The notes under the pieces: model-generated
What the model was told of the DNA's origin: nothing
Seen by the model: the letters and a program-made list of their open reading frames with translations, nothing else
The model's database searches: none
Position numbers and translations under genes: made by a program
Source: an uncultured Gemmatimonadaceae bacterium
GTDB taxonomy: Bacteria; Gemmatimonadota; Gemmatimonadetes; Gemmatimonadales; Gemmatimonadaceae
Assembly: GCA_963817955.1 (NCBI GenBank)
Contig: CAWFQK010000002.1
Location: forward strand, 992,001-1,056,000
Direction of reading: 5' to 3'
Length of the DNA: 64,000 bases
Shown here: positions 3,812-58,218 of the stretch, piece after piece
Layout of the letters: each line of letters begins with the position of its first letter
How positions within the stretch are numbered: position 1 is the stretch's first letter

Positions 3812-4924
3812 CTAGTCCGCGCGTTTGAGCGCGTGGAAGCGGTGAAGCACATCGTCGGGCAGCACGAGGTTGTCTGCGATTGCGGCGACCTCGTCAGCAT
3901 CTCGCCACGCCGCCTCGAGCGTGGCCAGCTCGCCCTCGAGCGCCCGGCGCTCGCTGTCTTCATGCGTCGCCATCTCCAAGGCGAGGCGGACATCCTGCGG
4001 AAGGTTGACCACCGCGCCTTCTGGTGTAGACTTGCCGAACCGTTGGATGCGGGATGGTGAGTGATCTGCGAAGTATTTGAACAAAGCCGAAGGGTCCGGA
4101 GTTTCGCCAAGCAGGTTGACGGCGGATGACAGTTGTTCGCGCTTGGCGCCACTCGCGTTGAGCACGGGAAGCAGCTTTGCCGCCGCCCGCAGCGCTACAT
4201 CGCCGGTGAGGGTCGTGGAGATCCACTGGGGACCATTCCAGCGCGATGCCTGCAGCATCCTGCCATTCTTCAGATGCACCGGCTCCGAACGCGGCCCCTG
4301 GATCGGCACGTTCAAGGCCCAGCCGTCACTCGCCGGAACGAGCGTGACACGGTAGAGCTGGTCGAGGCGCACCGACACCGGAACGGTGAATTCCGGCACG
4401 GTGAGCGTTCGGACCCTGCGCTGCCGAAACACATTGGCCGTGGTGTTGACGACACTCGAAATTGCCGTCACACCGCTGGCGATGGTGGTGATGAGCGCAC
4501 CGCCGGCTATGAGGTGAGTAACCGGCCCGAGTACGGCGGCACCCGTGGTAGCGGCGAGTCCGAGGCCGGTATAGAGCAAGTGCTTCCGACGCCGCCGGCC
4601 GAATTGATCGCCATAGCGCCACGCTGCCATTTCAGGACGTTGCGGCGATCCGATCCGCACGAGCGTGAGCCCGTCTCCCGCACGCGCGAGCCCGATGTTC
4701 TCGGTGGACATGCGCAAGCGCGTGCTCCGAAACAACCGCTCGCACTCCTCGATTGCCTCCCAGCGCTCCTCGAGCGGCGACAGGTTCCAACGCTCGCACG
4801 TACGGCATACCACCCACAGTCGCCCATGTGCCGAATCGAACGCCAGTCGACGGCCGACTGGAAAATGTTCGACCGCCTCGTTGGCCCCGAGCGGTGAATT
4901 GCAGAAGATGCAAGTGGAGAACAT
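3812..4924 (-). CDS. Conserved hypothetical protein with N-terminal Cys pairs (CxxC...CxxC) and a central hydrophobic segment
   Basis: MFSTCIFCN...WVVCRTCERW. The upstream extension in the ORF track runs through repeat DNA, so ATG 4924 is preferred. Confidence 0.75.
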   Translation of the reverse strand: MFSTCIFCNSPLGANEAVEHFPVGRRLAFDSAHGRLWVVCRTCERWNLSPLEERWEAIEECERLFRSTRLRMSTENIGLARAGDGLTLVRIGSPQRPEMAAWRYGDQFGRRRRKHLLYTGLGLAATTGAAVLGPVTHLIAGGALITTIASGVTAISSVVNTTANVFRQRRVRTLTVPEFTVPVSVRLDQLYRVTLVPASDGWALNVPIQGPRSEPVHLKNGRMLQASRWNGPQWISTTLTGDVALRAAAKLLPVLNASGAKREQLSSAVNLLGETPDPSALFKYFADHSPSRIQRFGKSTPEGAVVNLPQDVRLALEMATHEDSERRALEGELATLEAAWRDADEVAAIADNLVLPDDVLHRFHALKRAD

Positions 4925-4973
4925 GGCGCGCTGAAGATAGTGCATCGGGTTGTCGAGCACGCGTGCCTTCTCG

Positions 4974-5023
4974 CACCGGTCGGCGAGGTTCGGGTGTCGA
5001 GCGGTGAGTTGTGTGCTGTGAGT
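4974..5023 (-). repeat. Partial inverted copy of the ~100-bp dispersed element
   Basis: 4974-4992 is the exact reverse complement of 5063-5081 (cgaacctcgccgaccggtg), with CACAACT-like heptamers beside it. Confidence 0.8.
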
Positions 5024-5032
5024 ATCTAAAAA

Positions 5033-5149
5033 CGCACCACGCACAACGCACAACTGGAAACTCGAACCTCGCCGACCGGTGGGCCGACCGCTACGGAGCA
5101 GCCAGCGACATCCAGCCGGTCAACACCCCGGAGCCCCGTCCACGCTGCA
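5033..5149 (+). repeat. ~100-bp dispersed intergenic element, copy 1
   Basis: cacaac heptamers + ctcgccgaccggtgggccgaccgctacggagcagccagcg core; recurs at 7843 and 33360. Confidence 0.9.
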
Positions 5150-5322
5150 CGGTCGCCGCTCTACCGGCTTACGAGCCAGACACCCTGGTGCTGGTGACCT
5201 TCGCAGTTCTTGCGTAGGCGCTCTAATGACCTTCTCGCGGGTTCGGGGACACGGGTCTGACGTACCTCTCTACTATCTACTAACGCCGAAACGCTCAAAA
5301 CATGTCGGTTTTGGTCAATCGG

Positions 5323-6672
5323 TCACATTGGCCCTTGCGCTGACCCCCCAATTTCGGAACTAATATATAGGACTACGATCATCGCGGGACGAACGGGCGG
5401 CGAGACGGGATCGCTCGTGCCACGCATCGAATGCGAATAGGTCGAGACGGGATCGATCCTGGCACGCTTCAAATGCGAACGGGTCGAGACGGGATCGATC
5501 GTGGTGAGATCGGATTCGAACGGGTCGAGACGGGATTCGAGCGTGTCGAGATGGGATTCGAGCGTGTCGAGCAGGGATCCTAACGCGGCGAGATGGCATT
5601 CGATCGTGCCGAGCAAGGATCGCAACGCGGCGAGATGGCATCGCAACGCCGCGAGATGGAATGCGATCGTGCCGAGCGAGCATTGCAACGCCGCGAGGTG
5701 GCATTGCAACACGCCAAGCAGGGATCCTCGCCTGCCCAGATCGGATCGCAACGGATCAAGCAGGGATCGCCGCGCGTCGAGACCGAATCGCAACGGGGCG
5801 AGCGAGGATCGCAGCGCGTCGAGACGGAATCGCAACGCCGCGAGCAAGGATCCCAGCGGGGTGAGGCAGGATCCTCGCGTGCCGAGCAGGCATTGCAACC
5901 GGCCGAGAAGGGATGCGATCGCGTCGAGATCGCATCGCCTCGCTGCGAGACGACACCCGAACGCGTCGAGACGGCACTCCAACTCGCCGAGACGTAATCG
6001 GAGCGCGTCGAGCTGAGATTCCAACGCGTCGAGACAACACTCGAGCGCGTCGAGATGGCACCCCAACTCTGCGAGACACAATCGGAGCGCGTCGAGGCGG
6101 CACCCGAGCGCGCCGAGATGGGATTCTAACTCGTCGACCGGGCACCCCATCGGGTCGAGCTGGAATCCGAACTCGTCGAGACGCAATCGGAGCACGTCGA
6201 GAGAGCACTCCAACGCGGCGAGACGGCAGTCGAGCTCATCGAGATGGAACCCTCGCGCGTCGAGATGCCACTGCAACGCGTCGAGACGCCACGCCACCTC
6301 GCTGAGGCGGCACCCCAACTCTGCGAGACGACACCCCAACGCTCCGAGACGACAGCGCAACTCTGCGAGACCACATCGCAAATCCCCGAGACGACATCGC
6401 AACTCCCCAAGACGACATCGCAACTCCCCAAGACCACACCGCAACCGCTCGAGGCGGTTGCTCCCGTTTTTCGACCCCGGCGCGTCGGGCGCCCGTCGGG
6501 GGGCAGCTCTCTTTCGGCGCCCCGTTGGCCGGGAGGCCACATGAAATACCACGAAGGCAGTATGCTCGAAGCGCTCCGCCGCATCGACACCTTTCTCGAT
6601 GCCCAACCCACGGCGTTCGCCCCGCTCCTGGGTTCTGCCGCTCGGCAGGAGCTCACCGACACCATCACCCAA
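5323..6672 (-). CDS. Possible heptad-repeat (LxxLxxx), Cys-rich coiled-coil ORF encoded by the array; start uncertain
   Basis: Stop-free across the array; a/d positions use synonymous Leu codons CTC/CTT/CTG/TTG/TTA; no convincing RBS or start; overlaps the start of the + strand gene. Confidence 0.35.
   Translation of the reverse strand: MGDGVGELLPSGRTQERGERRGLGIEKGVDAAERFEHTAFVVFHVASRPTGRRKRAAPRRAPDAPGSKNGSNRLERLRCGLGELRCRLGELRCRLGDLRCGLAELRCRLGALGCRLAELGCRLSEVAWRLDALQWHLDARGFHLDELDCRLAALECSLDVLRLRLDEFGFQLDPMGCPVDELESHLGALGCRLDALRLCLAELGCHLDALECCLDALESQLDALRLRLGELECRLDAFGCRLAARRCDLDAIASLLGRLQCLLGTRGSCLTPLGSLLAALRFRLDALRSSLAPLRFGLDARRSLLDPLRSDLGRRGSLLGVLQCHLAALQCSLGTIAFHLAALRCHLAALRSLLGTIECHLAALGSLLDTLESHLDTLESRLDPFESDLTTIDPVSTRSHLKRARIDPVSTYSHSMRGTSDPVSPPVRPAMIVVLYISSEIGGSAQGPM
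5334..5371 (+). promoter_or_regulatory. Conserved promoter-like motif CTTGCGCTG-N16-ACTA-N5-TAGG upstream of the 21-nt array
   Basis: Same boxes and spacing at 28151-28114 on the minus strand, upstream of the second array; AT-rich context. Confidence 0.55.
5401..6470. repeat. Degenerate 21-nt-period tandem array (~50 units)
   Basis: Units start c(g/a/c)ag every 21 nt without an indel from 5505 to 6470; 5401-5484 shows a 42-nt dimer period; one 20-nt unit at 5485-5504. Confidence 0.95.
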
Positions 6673-7300
6673 CTCAGCGCGTCCGCCACTGCTCAGGAGG
6701 TCGGTGGCCGCGCGAGCCGAGGAGGGACGTCGAAGCTGCGCGCGCTGCGCCTTGCGCTACGGATCCACCATATGGATCCCATCGCGGCGATCGCGAAGCT
6801 TCGGTTGCCGGCTGTTCCCGATTTTAGCTCCCTCACCACGCCGCGCTCGACCGTGCCGACGGAGCGACTGCTCGCTGCGGCGGCCGCAATGGGCGAGGCC
6901 GCGGCTCGGCACGTGGCGGTGTTCACGGCTAACGGGCTTCCGGCGGATTTCCTCGCGCGGTTGCAGGCGTCCGCGCAGGCGCTGCAGGACGCCATTGATG
7001 GGCGATCAGGGCAAACCGTGGTCCGAAGCGGGGCGACGGCCATCCCTGGCGGCTGAGGAGCGGCGTGGTCGCACCATCATCACGGTGCTCAACGGCTTGC
7101 TGCTGCCGTTGATCGGCGCCGATGCCGGCCTGCAGGCGGCATGGACCACGGCGAAGCGCGTCGCGCGCAAGCCGGGCGTCAAGATCGGCGCTCGCGCGAG
7201 CGCGGCACAAGCGGACGCCACCACGCAGGGCAGTACGGCGGCGCCAGCAACGCCGCCGGCAGCATCCACACCTCCGGCATCGCAGTTGCCGGCGGTGTAA
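6541..7300 (+). pseudogene. Uncharacterised Ala-rich helical protein (~252 aa if repaired), with a +1 frameshift near 7040
   Basis: GGAGG RBS at 6532-6536 before ATG 6541. Removing one C at 7040/7041 joins ...VRSGATA to SLAAEERRG...AAWTTAKRV, collinear with the paralog at 27130. Confidence 0.8.
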
Positions 7301-7333
7301 CACGCCGCACCAGTAGGTCACACCCCGCAGTAC

Positions 7334-7367
7334 ACGCGAACGGCCGCCCTCGGGCGGCCGTTCGCGT
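7334..7367 (+). terminator. Strong hairpin after the array-associated gene
   Basis: acgcgaacggccgccc / gggcggccgttcgcgt perfect inverted repeat; only a weak pyrimidine tail. Confidence 0.65.
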
Positions 7368-7456
7368 TCCTCCCCTCTCAAATACTGCTTTGTCCGACGT
7401 TCAGCGCTGGCGGCGGTAACGGCGCGAACGACTGCGATTGGGTTCGGCGCGCTTGG

Positions 7457-7714
7457 GGCAGGATCAAGCGATCGGGACGACGGGTGACTGTCTTCAGTGA
7501 TCAGTGCGTGAGTCATCAGTCATCAGTCGCGCGGCAAGGCGACGGGTTCTCGCTCGGGCTGGCCTCCGTGGCCGCGCGTTTTATTTGGTGGTGGGTGGTT
7601 GCGGGTCGCTTCGCCCGGTCGAGGGCTGTCGGGGTCCTCAGTCACTGACGACTGATCACCTACGCACTGATGACTGACCACTGTCACCCGCCGTCCCGAT
7701 CGCTTGATCCTGCC
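7457..7714. mobile_element. MITE/REPIN-like element with ~71-bp imperfect terminal inverted repeats
   Basis: Arms 7457-7527 and 7644-7714 (about 9 mismatches), 116-bp spacer, TGG on both flanks. Confidence 0.55.
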
Positions 7715-7750
7715 TGGCCACGACAAGCCATCTCGTCGGCTCGCCCATCG

Positions 7751-7840
7751 CAGAGATCCTTCGCTTCGCTCAGGATGACCGGCTTCGCTCAGGATGCCAG
7801 GCTGTGCTCAGGATGCCAGGCTGTGCTCAGGATAACAGGC
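7751..7840 (+). repeat. REP-like palindrome followed by tandem 19-bp copies of its right half
   Basis: cagagatccttcgcttcgctcaggatgac, then ggcttcgctcaggatgcca, ggctgtgctcaggatgcca, ggctgtgctcaggataaca. Confidence 0.85.
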
Positions 7841-7841
7841 A

Positions 7842-7951
7842 ACGCACAACTCACAACTGGCAACTCGCACCTCGCCGACCGGCGGGCCGACCGCTACGGA
7901 GCAGCCAGCGGCATCCAGTCCGTCAACACCCGGAGCCCAATCCACGCTGCA
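7842..7951 (+). repeat. ~100-bp dispersed intergenic element, copy 2
   Basis: About 8 differences from 5040-5137 over ~97 nt. Confidence 0.9.
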
Positions 7952-8013
7952 GCGGCCGGCGGGAGCCGCTGGCGAGCCAGGGACCCCGATGCGAACGACT
8001 CCGGTGCGAAAGA

Positions 8014-9243
8014 CTAGACCACCTCCGCCAGCTCGGTCCGCCGAATGAACACCCAATAGGAGTAGATCAGCATGATCGCGGCACCGCCGCCGATCGCCCA
8101 TGACACTCCAATCACGTGCGCCACGCTGCCGGCGACGAACGAGCCGAGCACCGACGACAGGCCCACGACGACGAACGAATAGGCGGCCATCATGCGGCCG
8201 CGCAGCTCGTTGGGCGCGAGGTGCTGCAACGTCGAGTTGGACGACGCGTTGTTGACGATCATCGTAAAGCCCACCGCGAGCAATACGGGATATGCGATCG
8301 CGGCCGTGCGGACGAGCGAGAACAGGATCAGCAGCGCGGCAAATGCCAACGACCCGATGCGAAGCACCTGCCCGCGCGGCAGTCGATCGCCGATTGCCGC
8401 GAGGCATAGCGCACCGGCCAGGCCGCCGATTCCGACGCACGCCAGGAGCGCGCCATACCCGCCAGCGTTCAACCCAAGCCGGTCGCGAGCCACGACGGGC
8501 ATGAGCGTGAGGTAGGGAACGCCGAGTACGGAATACACGGTGACGAGGCGCAGCAGCGCGGCAACGGCCGGTGTGTCGCGCATGAACCGCATGCCTTCGC
8601 GAATGCCCTCGAGGGGCGACGCGAGATGCGTCGGCGGGAACCAGGCCGGCAACCGGACGAGAAACAGCCCAGCGAGAACCGTGATGTAGCTCGCGGCGTT
8701 CACACCGAAGCACCACGGCATCCCGAGTTTGGCGATGATGATCGCGCCGACGCTGGGTCCGACGACCCGCGCCAGATTGAACCCACTGGAGTTCACCGCG
8801 ATTGCGCCCGGCAGGTCTTCGCGACCGACGAGCTCGACGACGAGGGATTGTCGAGCCGGGATCTCGAACGCGCTGATCATCCCGTTGGCGGTCGCCAACA
8901 CGAGCAGCCAACCGATCGTGACGTGTCCCGACCAGGTCACCCACCAGAGCGTCGCCGCCTGAATGCCAAGCAGCATCTGCGCTATGCGGACGATCCGAAG
9001 CTTGTCGCTCCGATCCACCAGCACGCCCGCCGGCAGCGAGAACAGCAGAATGGGCAATGACTGCGCTGCCGCGACGAGACCGACGACGAAGGCGCTATTC
9101 GATATCTGTAACGCCAGCCACCCCTCGGCCATCGTCTGCATCCACGTGCCGATGAGCGACAGCGTCTGTCCGAACCAGAAGAGACGAAAATTCCGATGGC
9201 GGACGAGTGTGTCGAAGGGGTTGAGCGTGGGCACGCTGGACAA
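8014..9243 (-). CDS. MFS transporter (MFS_3/DUF894-like)
   Basis: RNFRLFWFGQTLSLIGTWMQ; GVLVDRSDK motif A; about 12 hydrophobic segments; start TTG 9243 or GTG 9234. Confidence 0.9.
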   Translation of the reverse strand: MSSVPTLNPFDTLVRHRNFRLFWFGQTLSLIGTWMQTMAEGWLALQISNSAFVVGLVAAAQSLPILLFSLPAGVLVDRSDKLRIVRIAQMLLGIQAATLWWVTWSGHVTIGWLLVLATANGMISAFEIPARQSLVVELVGREDLPGAIAVNSSGFNLARVVGPSVGAIIIAKLGMPWCFGVNAASYITVLAGLFLVRLPAWFPPTHLASPLEGIREGMRFMRDTPAVAALLRLVTVYSVLGVPYLTLMPVVARDRLGLNAGGYGALLACVGIGGLAGALCLAAIGDRLPRGQVLRIGSLAFAALLILFSLVRTAAIAYPVLLAVGFTMIVNNASSNSTLQHLAPNELRGRMMAAYSFVVVGLSSVLGSFVAGSVAHVIGVSWAIGGGAAIMLIYSYWVFIRRTELAEVV

Positions 9244-12676: not shown

Positions 12677-12789
12677 CCGGCCGGCCCGCCGGTCACAGAG
12701 ATCCTTCGCTTTGCTCAGGATGACAGGCATCTCTCGTCCCGTGTCCCGTGTCCCGTGTCCCGTGTCCCGTGTCCCGTGTCCCGTGTCTC
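12677..12789. repeat. Mosaic repeat cluster: fragment of the 100-bp element + REP-like palindrome + 7 GTCCCGT heptamers
   Basis: ccggccggcccgccggtc; cagagatccttcgctttgctcaggatgacaggc (12696-12728); (gtcccgt)n 12735-12789. Confidence 0.9.
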
Positions 12790-19195: not shown

Positions 19196-19210
19196 GTAAT
19201 GACAACTGAC

Positions 19211-19264
19211 ATCGTGGCGATTTTAGGCAAATTGCGGCCACGTAAAACATTCCGCTAAAGCGCC
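19211..19264 (+). promoter_or_regulatory. SAM-II (SAM-alpha)-like riboswitch aptamer
   Basis: P1 CGTGGC/GCCACG, GATTT, TTGC and GCTAAAG hallmark motifs; lies upstream of metH. Confidence 0.85.
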
Positions 19265-19265
19265 C

Positions 19266-19300
19266 GCCCGAGCGCTTGCGTTCGGGCATTTTTCTTTTTT
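19266..19300 (+). terminator. Intrinsic terminator as riboswitch expression platform
   Basis: gcccgagcgc-tt-gcgttcgggc followed by atttttctttttt, 16 nt before the metH ATG. Confidence 0.8.
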
Positions 19301-26005: not shown

Positions 26006-26025
26006 GGGACACGGGACACGGGACA
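26006..26025 (+). repeat. GGGACAC heptamer repeat
   Basis: gggacacgggacacgggaca directly after TAG. Confidence 0.85.
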
Positions 26026-27050: not shown

Positions 27051-27090
27051 CAGTCGTGTGGCCACCGCCGGAGCTGTAGCCACACGACTG
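27051..27090. terminator. Hairpin between convergent qor and the array-associated gene
   Basis: cagtcgtgtggc ... gccacacgactg 12-bp perfect stem. Confidence 0.55.
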
Positions 27091-27129: not shown

Positions 27130-27590
27130 TTACGTCACCGCGGGCGCCGTCGCGACCTGCGGCGCCGACCCCCCAGCGGTTGCTGCCACCGGCGGCGCGC
27201 CGGCGCCGCTGACGGCGGCCGGCACCTGCACTGATCCCTTCAGCACGACCCGTCTCGCCACACGCCAGCCGGCGAGGAAAGCCGGATCACCAGCAAATTG
27301 CTTGCTGATGACCGCGTTCAGCATGTTCACCGCCTCCCGCGCCCGGGCCAGCTCCTGCGTCATCGCCTGCGTTGCCCCGGCCCGACGGACCTTGGTGTTG
27401 CCACGCTCGGCGACCACCGCCTCCACCGCGGCGGCAGCGGCACCAAGTTGCTGCAGGGTGTCCGTGGGAAACCCACCCTGCACGAGCGTATCGGCATGCG
27501 GGGAGGCCGCCGTGGCCATCGCGCGTGCCGCGTGCACGAGCTGCTTGGGACGCAGCGACGACACGGGCGTGGTGAGGGCGGACAGAATGT
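27130..27590 (-). pseudogene. 5'-truncated paralog of the 6541-7300 protein
   Basis: SALTTPVSSLRPKQLVHAARAMATAA...GFPTD...RAGAT...LNA...D..FLAGWRVARRV aligns without gaps to SSLTTPRSTVPTERLLAAAAAMGEAA...GLPAD...RSGAT...LNG...D..LQAAWTTAKRV; the N-terminal ~95 aa are missing. Confidence 0.8.
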
Positions 27591-27614
27591 CCGCTCGCCC
27601 ACGCTGACAGCGCG

Positions 27615-27970
27615 CACGGGTCGCCGAAAGGCGCGAGCAGGTCGCTGAATCACGCGAGCAGGTCAGCGAAAACCGCGACCGGGTCGCCGAAACACGTGAC
27701 GGGTCAACGAAACGCGCGAGCGGGTCAACGAAAGGCCCGAGCGGGTCAGTGAATCACGCCGAGGGTCGGCCGTACAGCGCTTGCATTGCGTATTTCAGCG
27801 CTTGCATCGCGTATTTCAGCGCTTGCATCGCGGTATTTCAGAGCTTGTATCGCGTATTTCAGCGCTTCCATCGCGTATTTCAGCGCTTCCATCGCGTATT
27901 TCAGCGCTTCCATCGCGATATTTCAGTGCTTGTATCGCGATTTTCACCGCTTCTATCGCGTCGTACAGCG
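27615..27970. repeat. 21-nt-period tandem array in two blocks (~8 + ~9 units)
   Basis: Block 1 units such as agcaggtcgctgaatcacgcg; block 2 CAGCGCTTSCATCGCGTATTT from ~27775; a few 1-nt indels. Confidence 0.95.
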
Positions 27971-28001
27971 CTGATGGGGCGAAATCACCGATGTGAACAC
28001 G

Positions 28002-28047: not shown

Positions 28048-28113
28048 ATTGGCGTTCGCGCTCCGGGTTCAGCGATCGCTCATCGGCGAATCAGAGCTGG
28101 AGTCGCACTGCCC

Positions 28114-28151
28114 CCTACTATCTAGTCTCCGCTGGCGCACGCCAGCGCAAG
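28114..28151 (-). promoter_or_regulatory. Second copy of CTTGCGCTG-N16-ACTA-N5-TAGG
   Basis: Minus strand reads cttgcgctg gcgtgcgccagcggag acta gatag tagg. Confidence 0.55.
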
Positions 28152-28300
28152 AGTAAACTATCGTTTTCGCCAACTTTCTTTTGACAACAACCAAATAGTT
28201 GTGTTTTCGAGACTGAGGTGTTTGTAAGGTGAATGGCCAAAGTCTCGAGCCCACCTTCGCGCCGAGTGCCGACATAGGCGACACTCGACGCGGAACGTAG

Positions 28301-33305: not shown

Positions 33306-33476
33306 GGGACACGGGACACGGGACACGAGACAATCGACACGGGACAAGCGACACGAGAAACTCACAACGCACAACTCACAACTGGAAACTCGAACCTCGC
33401 CGACCGGTGGGCCGACCGGTACGGAGCAGCCAGCGAGATCCCGCCAGAATAGAGCCCGGAGTCCAATTCACGCTGT
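33306..33476 (+). repeat. GGGACAC heptamers followed by copy 3 of the ~100-bp dispersed element
   Basis: (gggacac)n 33306-33358; cacaactggaaactcgaacctcgccgaccggtgggccgaccggtacggagcagccagcga. Confidence 0.9.
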
Positions 33477-38939: not shown

Positions 38940-38968
38940 GGGACACGGGACACGGGACAATGGGGACG
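38940..38968 (+). repeat. GGGACAC heptamer repeat
   Basis: gggacacgggacacgggacaatggggac. Confidence 0.85.
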
Positions 38969-39562
38969 TCAGCAGTGCTCGAACGCGTTCAGCATGTCGC
39001 GTTTGTCCAGGTCCGTGTAGCAATACGGTCCGCATTGCGTGAGTCCTGCGGTTCGAAAGAGCCGGCGATACTCCGCTGCGCTTCGCTCCTGCCAGCCGAG
39101 TCGATCGCCTTCCATGGCGTCCTCCGTCGTGAACGCCTCGATGTACGCGACGCCGCCGAGCAAGCGACGGACGGCGCGCAAACCTCGCTCGAGATCACGT
39201 GACTCGACATACTGCAGGACGTCCGCGCAAACGATGAGATCGATATTGCGTGGCACGGTCATCTTCGCGAGATCGCCGAAGCTGCCCCGACGAATGTTGC
39301 GCCGCTTGCCAAACCGCTCGAGCACGTACTCGCTGGAGTCGATACCGACGTAACGCACCTCCGGCCTGAGCCTTCGGAGAACGGAGAACCAGGGCGCCTC
39401 GCCGCAGCCGATATCGAACACCGTTCGGATGCGCCGGCCGAGAACGAACTCGGCAACCGAGACGGCCAGTCGCACCTTGCGGCCGAGACTTTCGCGAGTC
39501 GATACCCGATCTTCCGGGTCGCGGTACCAACGGTTGAAATAGCTGCGATCGTAAGTCTTCAT
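38969..39562 (-). CDS. Class I SAM-dependent methyltransferase
   Basis: VFDIGCGE, GIDSS, DLIVCADVLQY. Confidence 0.88.
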   Translation of the reverse strand: MKTYDRSYFNRWYRDPEDRVSTRESLGRKVRLAVSVAEFVLGRRIRTVFDIGCGEAPWFSVLRRLRPEVRYVGIDSSEYVLERFGKRRNIRRGSFGDLAKMTVPRNIDLIVCADVLQYVESRDLERGLRAVRRLLGGVAYIEAFTTEDAMEGDRLGWQERSAAEYRRLFRTAGLTQCGPYCYTDLDKRDMLNAFEHC

Positions 39563-39600
39563 CCCGTGTCTCGTGTCTCGTGTCCCGTGTCCCGTGTCCC
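39563..39600 (-). repeat. GGGACAC/GAGACAC heptamer repeat
   Basis: cccgtgtctcgtgtctcgtgtcccgtgtcccgtgtccc abutting the methyltransferase ATG. Confidence 0.9.
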
Positions 39601-58097: not shown

Positions 58098-58218
58098 GTC
58101 GCTGGCTGCTCCTAGCGGTCGGCCCGCAGTTCATAGAGATCCTTCGCTTCGCTCAGGATGACAGGCTGTCGCGTGTCGCGTCCGTGTCTCGTGTCCCGTG
58201 TCCCGTGTCCCGTGTCTC
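58098..58218. repeat. Mosaic repeat cluster: inverted fragment of the 100-bp element + REP-like palindrome + GTCCCGT heptamers
   Basis: gtcgctggctgctcctagcggtcggcccgc; agagatccttcgcttcgctcaggatgacaggc (58135-58166); heptamers 58182-58218. Confidence 0.9.

Follow-up and report, generated by a model that had tools for sequence, protein, structure and literature searches.

We analysed a 64,000-nucleotide (nt) window from the genome of an uncultured Gemmatimonadaceae bacterium (GenBank assembly GCA_963817955.1, contig CAWFQK010000002.1, positions 992,001 to 1,056,000 of the forward strand). Near the start of the window, about fifty 21-nt direct repeats lie upstream of a gene for an uncharacterised protein, and together they form a duplicated unit of 2.1 kb. 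The unit is a conserved, strictly phased 21-bp non-coding array in the control region of that gene. Related units occur elsewhere in the genome and in other Gemmatimonadota, and what is kept among them is a period of two DNA helical turns rather than a sequence, a rare natural case. Members of the Gemmatimonadota abound in soil, and hardly any molecular genetics exists for them; the arrays offer direct access to the way in which phased repeat lattices are recognised, whether as DNA or as RNA. The assembly comprises 4.53 Mb in 9 contigs with 64% G+C, and a housekeeping enzyme encoded in the window is 75-83% identical to its Gemmatimonadaceae counterparts. Positions below are those of the window; labels such as C4:244583 give a contig and a position in the genome.

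Organization of the unit

A blastn comparison of positions 4800-8200 with the genome delimits the unit, as homology with the copies on contig 4 runs from 5246/5247 to 7376/7377 at 80-83% identity. From 5' to 3' it consists of a start motif, the array, a terminator-like hairpin, a structured leader, a ribosome binding site (RBS), the gene and a 3' hairpin. Array periods were obtained with Tandem Repeats Finder (TRF).

5246..7377 (+), whole duplicated unit, copy 1
5297..5375 (+), start motif of class A, AT-rich and promoter-like, with TTGCGC at 5335-5340 and TAATAT at 5361-5366, ending in TATAGGAC
5323..6672 (-), antisense open frame of 449 aa with LxxLxxx heptads, judged not a gene
5401..5505 (+), first five 21-nt units, arranged as 42-nt super-units (TRF period 42, 3.5 copies, 82% matches)
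5506..6450 (+), 45 units in perfect register, consensus GAGACGGCATCCCAACGCGTC (from rows of 21 and column entropies)
6441..6471 (+), terminator-like hairpin T1, GCAACCGC-TCGA-GGCGGTTGC, then the T-run TCCCGTTTTT (terminator scan)
6475..6501 (+), leader hairpin S1, CCCCGGCG ... CGTCGGGG, then a U-rich run
6487..6493 (+), S1 loop GGGCGCC, the 5' strand of the S2 pairing, a pseudoknot (alignment A3)
6516..6522 (+), GGCGCCC, the 3' strand of S2, just 5' of the RBS (alignment A3)
6526..6539 (+), small hairpin TGGCC-GGGA-GGCCA around the Shine-Dalgarno sequence GGGAGG (6531-6536), read from the sequence
6541..7300 (+), gene of the uncharacterised family, with one extra base at about 7040; P0001 represents residues 1-171 and P0002 the rest, in another frame
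7336..7365 (+), 3' hairpin after the stop codon, a 14-bp GC-rich stem that closes the unit, read from the sequence

The main elements had been recognised in the initial annotation, which reported a motif at 5334-5371, about 50 degenerate 21-nt units, a gene with a clean RBS and a strong hairpin past the gene. The motif is present as part of the longer conserved start element, the repeat count agrees with the 45 units in register plus the five first ones, and the hairpin is the 14-bp stem at the end of the unit. The gene does begin with an ATG (6541) behind GGGAGG, and its reading frame is broken at about 7040.

The start motif falls into two sequence classes with the common core CTTGCGC-N14/15-GGA(G)ACTA.ATA.TAGG. 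A regular expression matched it 27 times in the genome; 23 of these matches are at unit starts and the remaining four are unrelated. In all 23 units the motif, which contains a TAnnnT hexamer, points towards the array and the gene. Its spacing is not canonical for sigma-70, and a scan of 5200-7450 for the sigma-70 consensus found no site.

The 21-nt array

When positions 5506-6450 are written in rows of 21, no indel is found across 45 diverged units, and the near-invariant positions stand out as GAG in columns 1-3, A in column 9 and C in column 16. The mean lag-21 identity is 0.61 versus about 0.26 at other lags, and the TRF periods over 5401-6445 are 21, 42, 63, 84 and 105. Compared with five paralogous arrays, columns 2, 3, 9 and 16 diverge by 0.01-0.07 versus 0.2-0.46 elsewhere. 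The overall divergence of the array, 0.20-0.25, is near the synonymous divergence of the gene (0.15-0.20), and indels between paralogous arrays are mostly of 21, 42 or 63 nt. Against the same five arrays the ratio of nonsynonymous to synonymous divergence (dN/dS) is 0.58-1.25 in all six frames, whereas the downstream gene gives 0.12-0.29 in its own frame. Because so few columns are constrained, because of these dN/dS values and because the indels are mostly whole units, the array is non-coding DNA under constraints at the level of the nucleotide and of phase.

The long antisense frame had been offered as one explanation of the array, namely a divergent coiled-coil partner polypeptide. It is open for 449 codons with leucine at heptad positions a and d, it gives weak Pfam matches (DUF7310 with 41.5 bits, cut-off 40; crescentin rod with 26 bits, cut-off 100), and variants at two conserved triplets remain hydrophobic. 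We nevertheless rejected it, as dN/dS in that frame is 1.06-1.24, far from the 0.12-0.29 of the real gene, and the 95% paralogs C4:244583 and C4:587885 have this frame interrupted. The invariant columns are not codon-periodic and include a first codon position giving S/C/F/L/W as well as a third position. Arrays of other subfamilies and species yield no coiled coil in any frame, and 130 nt at the start of the sense gene would be shared with the antisense frame. Coding on the sense strand was rejected as well, with stops in all three sense frames.

Further candidates were set aside. A clustered regularly interspaced short palindromic repeat (CRISPR) array is ruled out, as the units run head to tail without spacers. 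Columns 2, 9 and 16 are spaced 7 nt apart in the copy 1 array (circular autocorrelation 0.50), but neither 11 other arrays nor mean lag spectra show a general 7-nt sub-period. Folding of the array as RNA shows no excess (z-scores of -0.55 on the plus and -1.31 on the minus strand). The triplet GGA is confined to proximal units of the copy 1 array, and the arrays of relatives are without it.

The gene and its product

Alignment with the intact paralog P0004 (252 aa) has a single gap, at window position 7040, which places the copy 1 frameshift. Neither the protein nor 11 aligned members matched a Pfam, NCBIfam or PHROG family, in keeping with the initial annotation, which recognised no named family. 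Profile search of the PDB gave nothing below E 0.01, and Foldseek against the PDB gave nothing at E <= 0.001. Structural alignment with VIA-align returned generic helical bundles only (best Z 9.5). Among these matches is PspA/IM30, a helical stress protein under sigma-54 control (chain 4whe_A; Z 7.7, rank 42), with a score inside the range of unspecific helical matches; the family itself had no Pfam match at E <= 1. In the ESM Atlas only unnamed clusters were found, most frequent in Gemmatimonadota and Acidobacteriota.

The family is large and unannotated. A profile built from 11 members (A1), used in a full hidden Markov model (HMM) search of 1.84 billion proteins, found 4840 representative clusters in metagenomes at E <= 0.001, 848 of them at E <= 1e-30; a word-indexed protein search had found five matches only, and the size of the family emerged from the full HMM search. 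The AlphaFold2 model (pLDDT 83) is all-helical, with two helices of 55-56 residues each (33-88 and 137-191) and a disordered tail from residue 213. Among 149 representatives the net charge of the protein body is positive in 95%, with a median of +8; 65 end in Ala-Ala, and the alanine frequency of the tail is 0.22. The product is thus a basic, all-helical protein of about 250 aa with a disordered tail, rich in Ala, Pro and Thr, whose last two residues are often Ala-Ala. This terminus is possibly a degradation tag, presumably of the C-terminal class of ClpX degrons, and would bring about fast turnover by ClpXP.

The proximal leader

T1 closes the array and leaves about 70 nt to the start codon. 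In an alignment of 19 leaders (A3), helix 1 (S1) is 84.2% paired, nine of its ten pairs vary on both sides, and G-U pairs occur. Helix 2 (S2), which joins the S1 loop to the sequence just 5' of the RBS, is 93.8% paired; pair 56-104 is AU ten times and GC six times, and compensatory variants include GGACGC/GCGTCC, GGATGC/GCATCC and GGGCGCC/GGCGCCC, the last being that of copy 1. Over the whole alignment 87.8% of cells pair, versus 74.4% in shuffled alignments (none of 500 as high) and 29-47% when partners are slid. On the sense strand 5' of the start codon, the GC-rich hairpin with a U-run behind it has the form of an attenuator or intrinsic terminator, and termination there is predicted from sequence; in three loci (L022, L026 and L032) S1 and its U-run are a canonical terminator.

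We take the proximal leader to be a structured RNA composed of a hairpin, a U-run and a loop-to-downstream pairing, as the covariation indicates. A dimeric protein bound to DNA could, in principle, likewise make inverted half-sites covary; what speaks for RNA is the presence of G-U pairs and of the U-run. The leader with this pairing is absent from Rfam, which neither array nor leader matched at E <= 1 or at the gathering score. Of the 13 genomic matches of a covariance model (R1) built from the hairpin region, 12 are at unit leaders, and the remaining one is weak and lies in coding DNA. Hairpins that enclose the RBS with other stems were seen by eye in three sequences only, those of copy 1, of subfamily 2 (ATGGCC-ACTTGGA-GGCCAT) and of L049 (CCCC-TTGGA-GGGG).

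Copies in the genome

The initial annotation described the unit as copy 1 of 2, which is an undercount. A query with the N-terminal part of the protein found 30 places in the genome at E <= 10, of which the 23 at E <= 0.013 were examined. An array with lag-21 identity of at least 0.5 lies directly upstream at 19 of the 23; one more place is a gene in tandem, and three have none. Period 21 is the commonest tandem-repeat period genome-wide (22 kb of TRF rows, with another 10.7 kb at period 42). There are 42 arrays of at least 150 nt whose period is a multiple of 21, 20 of them upstream of a family gene or fragment and 22 not. About ten family genes are intact, and the others are frameshifted, truncated or down to a few codons. 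Two arrays on contig 4 have no gene at all; they keep motif, array and hairpins, T1 included, and their homology ends at the RBS. At another locus (L012, C1:440955-442472, minus strand) two family genes 20-31% identical to P0004 stand in tandem, and array and R1 leader are found only at the first.

The second copy in the window was reported as having the same parts in the same order at 28151-27051 on the minus strand. This is correct (28152-27051), and the copy is a 5'-deleted one with these features:

28111..28152 (-), start motif of class B, CTCTTGCGC..GGAGACTAGATAGTAGGGGG (genome C2:1020150)
27610..27972 (-), arrays in two blocks, 27775-27972 (TRF period 21, 9.3 copies, 87%) and 27610-27748 (period 21, 6.7 copies, 76%)
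27576..27600 (-), array-end hairpin, GGGCGAGCGGAC-ATTCT-GTCCGCCC
27130..27564 (-), gene remnant P0003, 144 aa, covering profile positions 85-244 only
27051..27090 (-), hairpin past the stop codon, CAGTCGTGTGGC...GCCACACGACTG, read from the sequence

Relative to a 95%-identical paralog (C1:141770-143230), copy 2 lacks 404 nt, comprising the proximal leader and about 84 codons, with the junction at about 27580. Both copies in the window are therefore decayed, copy 1 by its frameshift and copy 2 by its 5' deletion.

Three further observations concern the family gene and the 21-nt period elsewhere in the genome. At C2:888482-888805 (L006, minus strand) a family gene contributes its first 106 codons to an in-frame fusion, in which they follow the N-terminal portion of a type I restriction-modification methylase. 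The junction is exactly at the start codon, there is no array, and the fusion protein (P0006) carries PF02384 and PF12161. A second type of 21-nt array occurs at C1:558481-558910, C3:118425-118861, C4:1664047-1664401 and C7:126472-126973, with its own start motif ..GCGGTGGCAAG..GGCATAGAGG.., a common end ..CTCACGTACCGT, and no family gene or R1 leader adjoining. A third type (C2:413115-413441 and C1:191821-192089) starts behind an AT-rich stretch and ends in the hairpin GCCTGCCGGATGGCAGGC, again with no family gene adjoining.

Conservation in relatives

Of 41 close relatives, 18 have the family. A draw across the phylum found it in 74 of 401 genomes, all within two families of one order (11/94 and 62/166), and not in 140 genomes from ten other families. 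A search of genome contigs for related loci with a closer alignment (A2) found no relative.

In a first set of loci, the top autocorrelation lag in the last 1 kb upstream of the gene was 21, 42 or 63 in 18 of 25 informative cases. In a second set, the best upstream window had a lag of 21 or 42 in 20 of 26 loci and of 20, 22 or 43 in four more. The top TRF period in 51 loci was 21, 42, 63 or 126 in 22, 22 in three, 20 in two and another value in 11. The units themselves are unrelated between loci, being for example C-rich on the sense strand in L053 and L055 and G-rich in L057, and the arrays of relatives have no shared motif and no shared strand composition. The R1 leader was found at 16 of the 51 loci, 13 of which were training rows, and at none of those of a sister family (f2). 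Metagenome gene calls that run 5' of the true start have extensions that are compositionally odd and periodic by 7 residues. Because of the arrays, gene callers produce false N-terminal extensions, periodic by 7 residues, and false antisense coiled-coil frames at family loci.

The proposal that this is a conserved, multi-copy functional unit holds and can be extended, as there are many copies in the genome and homologues across species, genera and a second taxonomic family mostly have upstream DNA with a 21- or 42-nt period. Of the two findings that were to speak against it, a general lack of arrays and motif upstream of homologues and a characterised protein family that accounts for the arrangement, neither was obtained, save that the start motif gave no match outside the genome in a profile search (nhmmer, 54 relatives' loci). 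A strict regular expression for a -10 element plus TAGRG matched only 2 of 24 relatives' loci, and no cross-genome motif is claimed.

Promoters

The far-end start motif is the sole strongly conserved promoter-like element at the units of the genome studied here. Of 21 loci in the sister family f2, 16 match the sigma-54 type GG-N10-GC (-24/-12) on the sense strand, for example with TGGCAC-N5-TCGCA, against a background of 0.37 matches per kb. These matches lie between array and gene, at -95 to -147 from the start codon, and make the sister family a probable sigma-54 regulon. In six of the seven f2 loci with a clear array as well as a match, the array ends upstream of the match; in the seventh (L058) the two overlap. 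Upstream of a promoter is the usual place of enhancer sites. The gene rpoN was present in all five genomes tested, the studied genome included, together with 7-15 genes for enhancer-binding ATPases per genome.

Proposed mechanism and alternatives

We consider a phased binding lattice at the level of DNA the most likely mechanism, with a probability of roughly 0.4. The array would be a periodic lattice on double-stranded DNA in which each unit, being two helical turns long, shows the same face. A protein would coat it or oligomerise along it and so set the activity of the adjoining promoter. The likeliest ligand would be the product of the adjoining gene, because it is basic, because its length of about 80 Angstrom is near the 71 Angstrom spanned by 21 bp, and because it and the array diverge in step. 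Protein and array would then form an autoregulated pair. An enhancer-binding activator is the alternative ligand.

The lattice is favoured because the 21/42-nt period is maintained without sequence, because the array is non-coding and yet constrained in certain columns and in phase, because the f2 arrays have an enhancer-like position, because the array has no RNA signature and because the product is basic and predicted to be rod-like. Small arrays with a period of 20 or 22, and lags of 43, are found too; helical phasing would predict this and codon heptads would not. A wedge model predicted a net bend above that of random genomic DNA in 11 of 17 arrays, which in-phase repeats are expected to show, so that the curvature supports the lattice weakly.

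Several observations weigh against this reading. The sigma-54 match is absent from all 30 loci of the window's family (f1), and the 23 copies in the genome have only two weak and oddly placed matches. Around 17 family loci in five genomes, no gene for an enhancer-binding protein is nearer than 20 kb, and alignment A3 has no conserved -10 within 40 nt 5' of S1. As there is neither a sigma-54 nor a -10 signal between array and gene, the array is probably transcribed together with the gene in the studied genome. The far-end promoter-like motif points into the array in its 23 copies, T1 and its T-run close the array on the same strand, and the gene-less arrays with their motif and hairpins, like the other array types that end in hairpins, resemble transcription units. 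The periodicity also has exceptions. Seven of the 25 informative loci of the first set lack a lag of 21, 42 or 63, and 13 of the 51 loci have no TRF tandem repeat. The control taken downstream of the gene is not clean, as it too gives a lag of 21 or 42 in 7 of 24 cases, at a lower identity (0.36-0.43).

Much of this would suit a transcribed repeat RNA, which we regard as a possible explanation although a less probable one than the DNA lattice. The start motif would be a promoter, from which a transcript of about 1.1 kb, either a leader or a non-coding RNA, would extend to the terminator-like hairpins, with the gene expressed by read-through (attenuation). Each 21-nt unit would be a site for an RNA-binding protein, possibly the gene product, and the RNA would act as a scaffold, a sponge or an autoregulatory leader. 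The array-facing, AT-rich TAnnnT motif at the far end of all 23 units would provide the promoter, and T1, together with S1 where it is a canonical terminator, would provide the ends. The covariation of S1 and S2, with G-U pairs in S1, implies that the sense strand is read as RNA at least from S1 on. The 70 nt between T1 and the start codon leave no room for a promoter, and both the gene-less arrays and those of the third type terminate in hairpins. However, in f2 the putative sigma-54 promoter between array and gene (16/21) means that the array is not needed there as a leader. The array shows no excess folding, and no motif or base composition is common to the loci. Single-stranded RNA has no intrinsic reason for a 21-nt period. 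The start motif was not found outside the genome, and the AT-richest window lies just 5' of the array in only 9 of 24 relatives. The initial annotation had named a repetitive 5' leader RNA and an in-phase DNA binding array as options; the f2 evidence tilts towards the DNA array, and the promoter- and terminator-like elements of the studied genome tilt towards the RNA.

It is unlikely that the array is a functionless repeat, either a dispersed element that once propagated itself and is now decaying, or a region prone to slippage, with a period inherited by descent through unit-wise slippage. The unit has more than 20 copies with sharp ends (5246-7377 in copy 1), about half of the family genes are broken or truncated, and 22 of the 42 longer arrays have no detectable family gene adjoining. 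Array divergence is close to the synonymous divergence of the gene, indels in multiples of 21 are what slippage produces, and the genome is rich in other repeats. Against this, the period is equal across two taxonomic families with unrelated units, and descent alone is insufficient to account for it once one unit sequence has given way to another. Certain columns diverge 5-30 times less than those beside them, 45 diverged units contain no indel of 1-2 nt, and there is no transposase within the unit.

Weakest by far is the proposal that the array encodes, in the antisense frame at 5323-6672, a heptad-repeat coiled-coil partner of the gene product, which the dN/dS values and broken frames described above make very improbable.

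An extension of the lattice reading is that each rod-like paralog reads its own 21-bp (or 21-nt) track, which would amount to more than twenty independent co-evolving protein-lattice pairs. We hold this to be rather doubtful. If true, it would represent a new sequence-programmable nucleoprotein filament system with one protein per two helical turns, used to control genes or to structure the chromosome locally, and would stand apart from iterons, centromeres and enhancers.

Other repeats and elements nearby

The unit lies among other repeats. A dispersed repeat of about 105 nt, ..CTCGCCGACCGG(T/C)GGGCCGACCGCTACGGAGCAGCCAGCG.., is found at 5030-5136 and 7842-7931, with an inverted pair at 4974-5081 and heptamer runs alongside; it gives 150 blastn alignments genome-wide. 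A 90-nt direct repeat that flanks the unit (5039-5128 and 7842-7931) was considered as its boundary and rejected, as it is dispersed genome-wide and brackets the unit by chance. Just 3' of the unit is an inverted repeat (7457-7527/7644-7714) with 71-nt arms that are 87% complementary and 116 nt apart and contain heptamer runs GTCATCA / CACTGAC. At 7768-7840 a 19-nt tandem repeat, GCTCAGGATGACAGGCTGT, is present in 3.8 copies and is an instance of 20-nt repeats (GCCTGTCATCCTGAGCGAAG and CTCTTGCAGTTCTCTGCGAC types) found at dozens of places in the genome.

Intergenic heptamer arrays of the GTCCCGT / GGGACAC types occur at 12736-12787, 26006-26025, 33306-33355, 38940-38959, 39562-39600 and 58180-58216. 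The sequence at 19204-19279 (+) matches the SAM_alpha riboswitch RF00521 (39.3 bits, gathering score 36, E 2.4e-05), which has been described for Alphaproteobacteria, whereas the host is a member of the Gemmatimonadaceae.

Comparison with known systems

Full-text literature searches, within the part of the literature open to them, returned no description of such 21-nt arrays or of the protein family. We rate the module as new as a whole, and its parts (direct repeats, a terminator-like leader, a sigma-54 promoter) as familiar kinds.

Plasmid iterons are direct repeats of 17-22 bp with a spacing of about two helical turns that lie beside a rep gene and autoregulate it. Like them, the repeats of the unit are direct, two turns apart in perfect register (period 21) and directly 5' of a gene; the repeat sequence diverges along with the adjoining gene, and extra gene-less arrays exist. 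Unlike iterons, which number 3-9, the repeats reach 45-70 and occupy more than 20 chromosomal loci, and the protein has no winged-helix Rep domain or any Pfam match.

The centromeres of type II and type III partition systems (parC/ParR of R1 and pSK41, tubC/TubR) are upstream tandem repeats coated by an adaptor that represses the promoter. The unit likewise has a phased tandem lattice 5' of a gene, for which cooperative coating and autoregulation are proposed here. It differs in being monocistronic with no NTPase partner gene, in its many chromosomal copies and in its protein, a predicted long helical bundle and not a ribbon-helix-helix or winged-helix protein.

The resemblance to sigma-54 enhancers stems from the f2 arrays, most of which are directly 5' of a predicted -24/-12 promoter, and from the presence of a sigma-54 gene. 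Known enhancers have two or three inverted-repeat sites versus 10-40 direct repeats here, no activator gene is found within the 20 kb searched around 17 loci, and family f1 has no match among its 30 loci.

Among RNA systems, the CsrB/RsmZ sponge RNAs carry GGA loops, and TRAP and HutP act on repeat-reading antitermination leaders. Many short repeated sites 5' of a terminator, with a near-invariant GAG in the units of the copy 1 array, would fit the transcribed repeat RNA. In contrast to these systems, the arrays have no site in common, no Rfam match and a rigid spacing. The heptamer arrays of Gemmatimonadota share the repeat-rich intergenic setting and occur in the window too, but the 21-nt arrays are tied to one protein family and have no general 7-nt sub-period.

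By analogy the unit would work most like an iteron/Rep pair, a centromere and its adaptor, or an oversized enhancer; it fails the defining protein features of each of these three and differs from them in scale.

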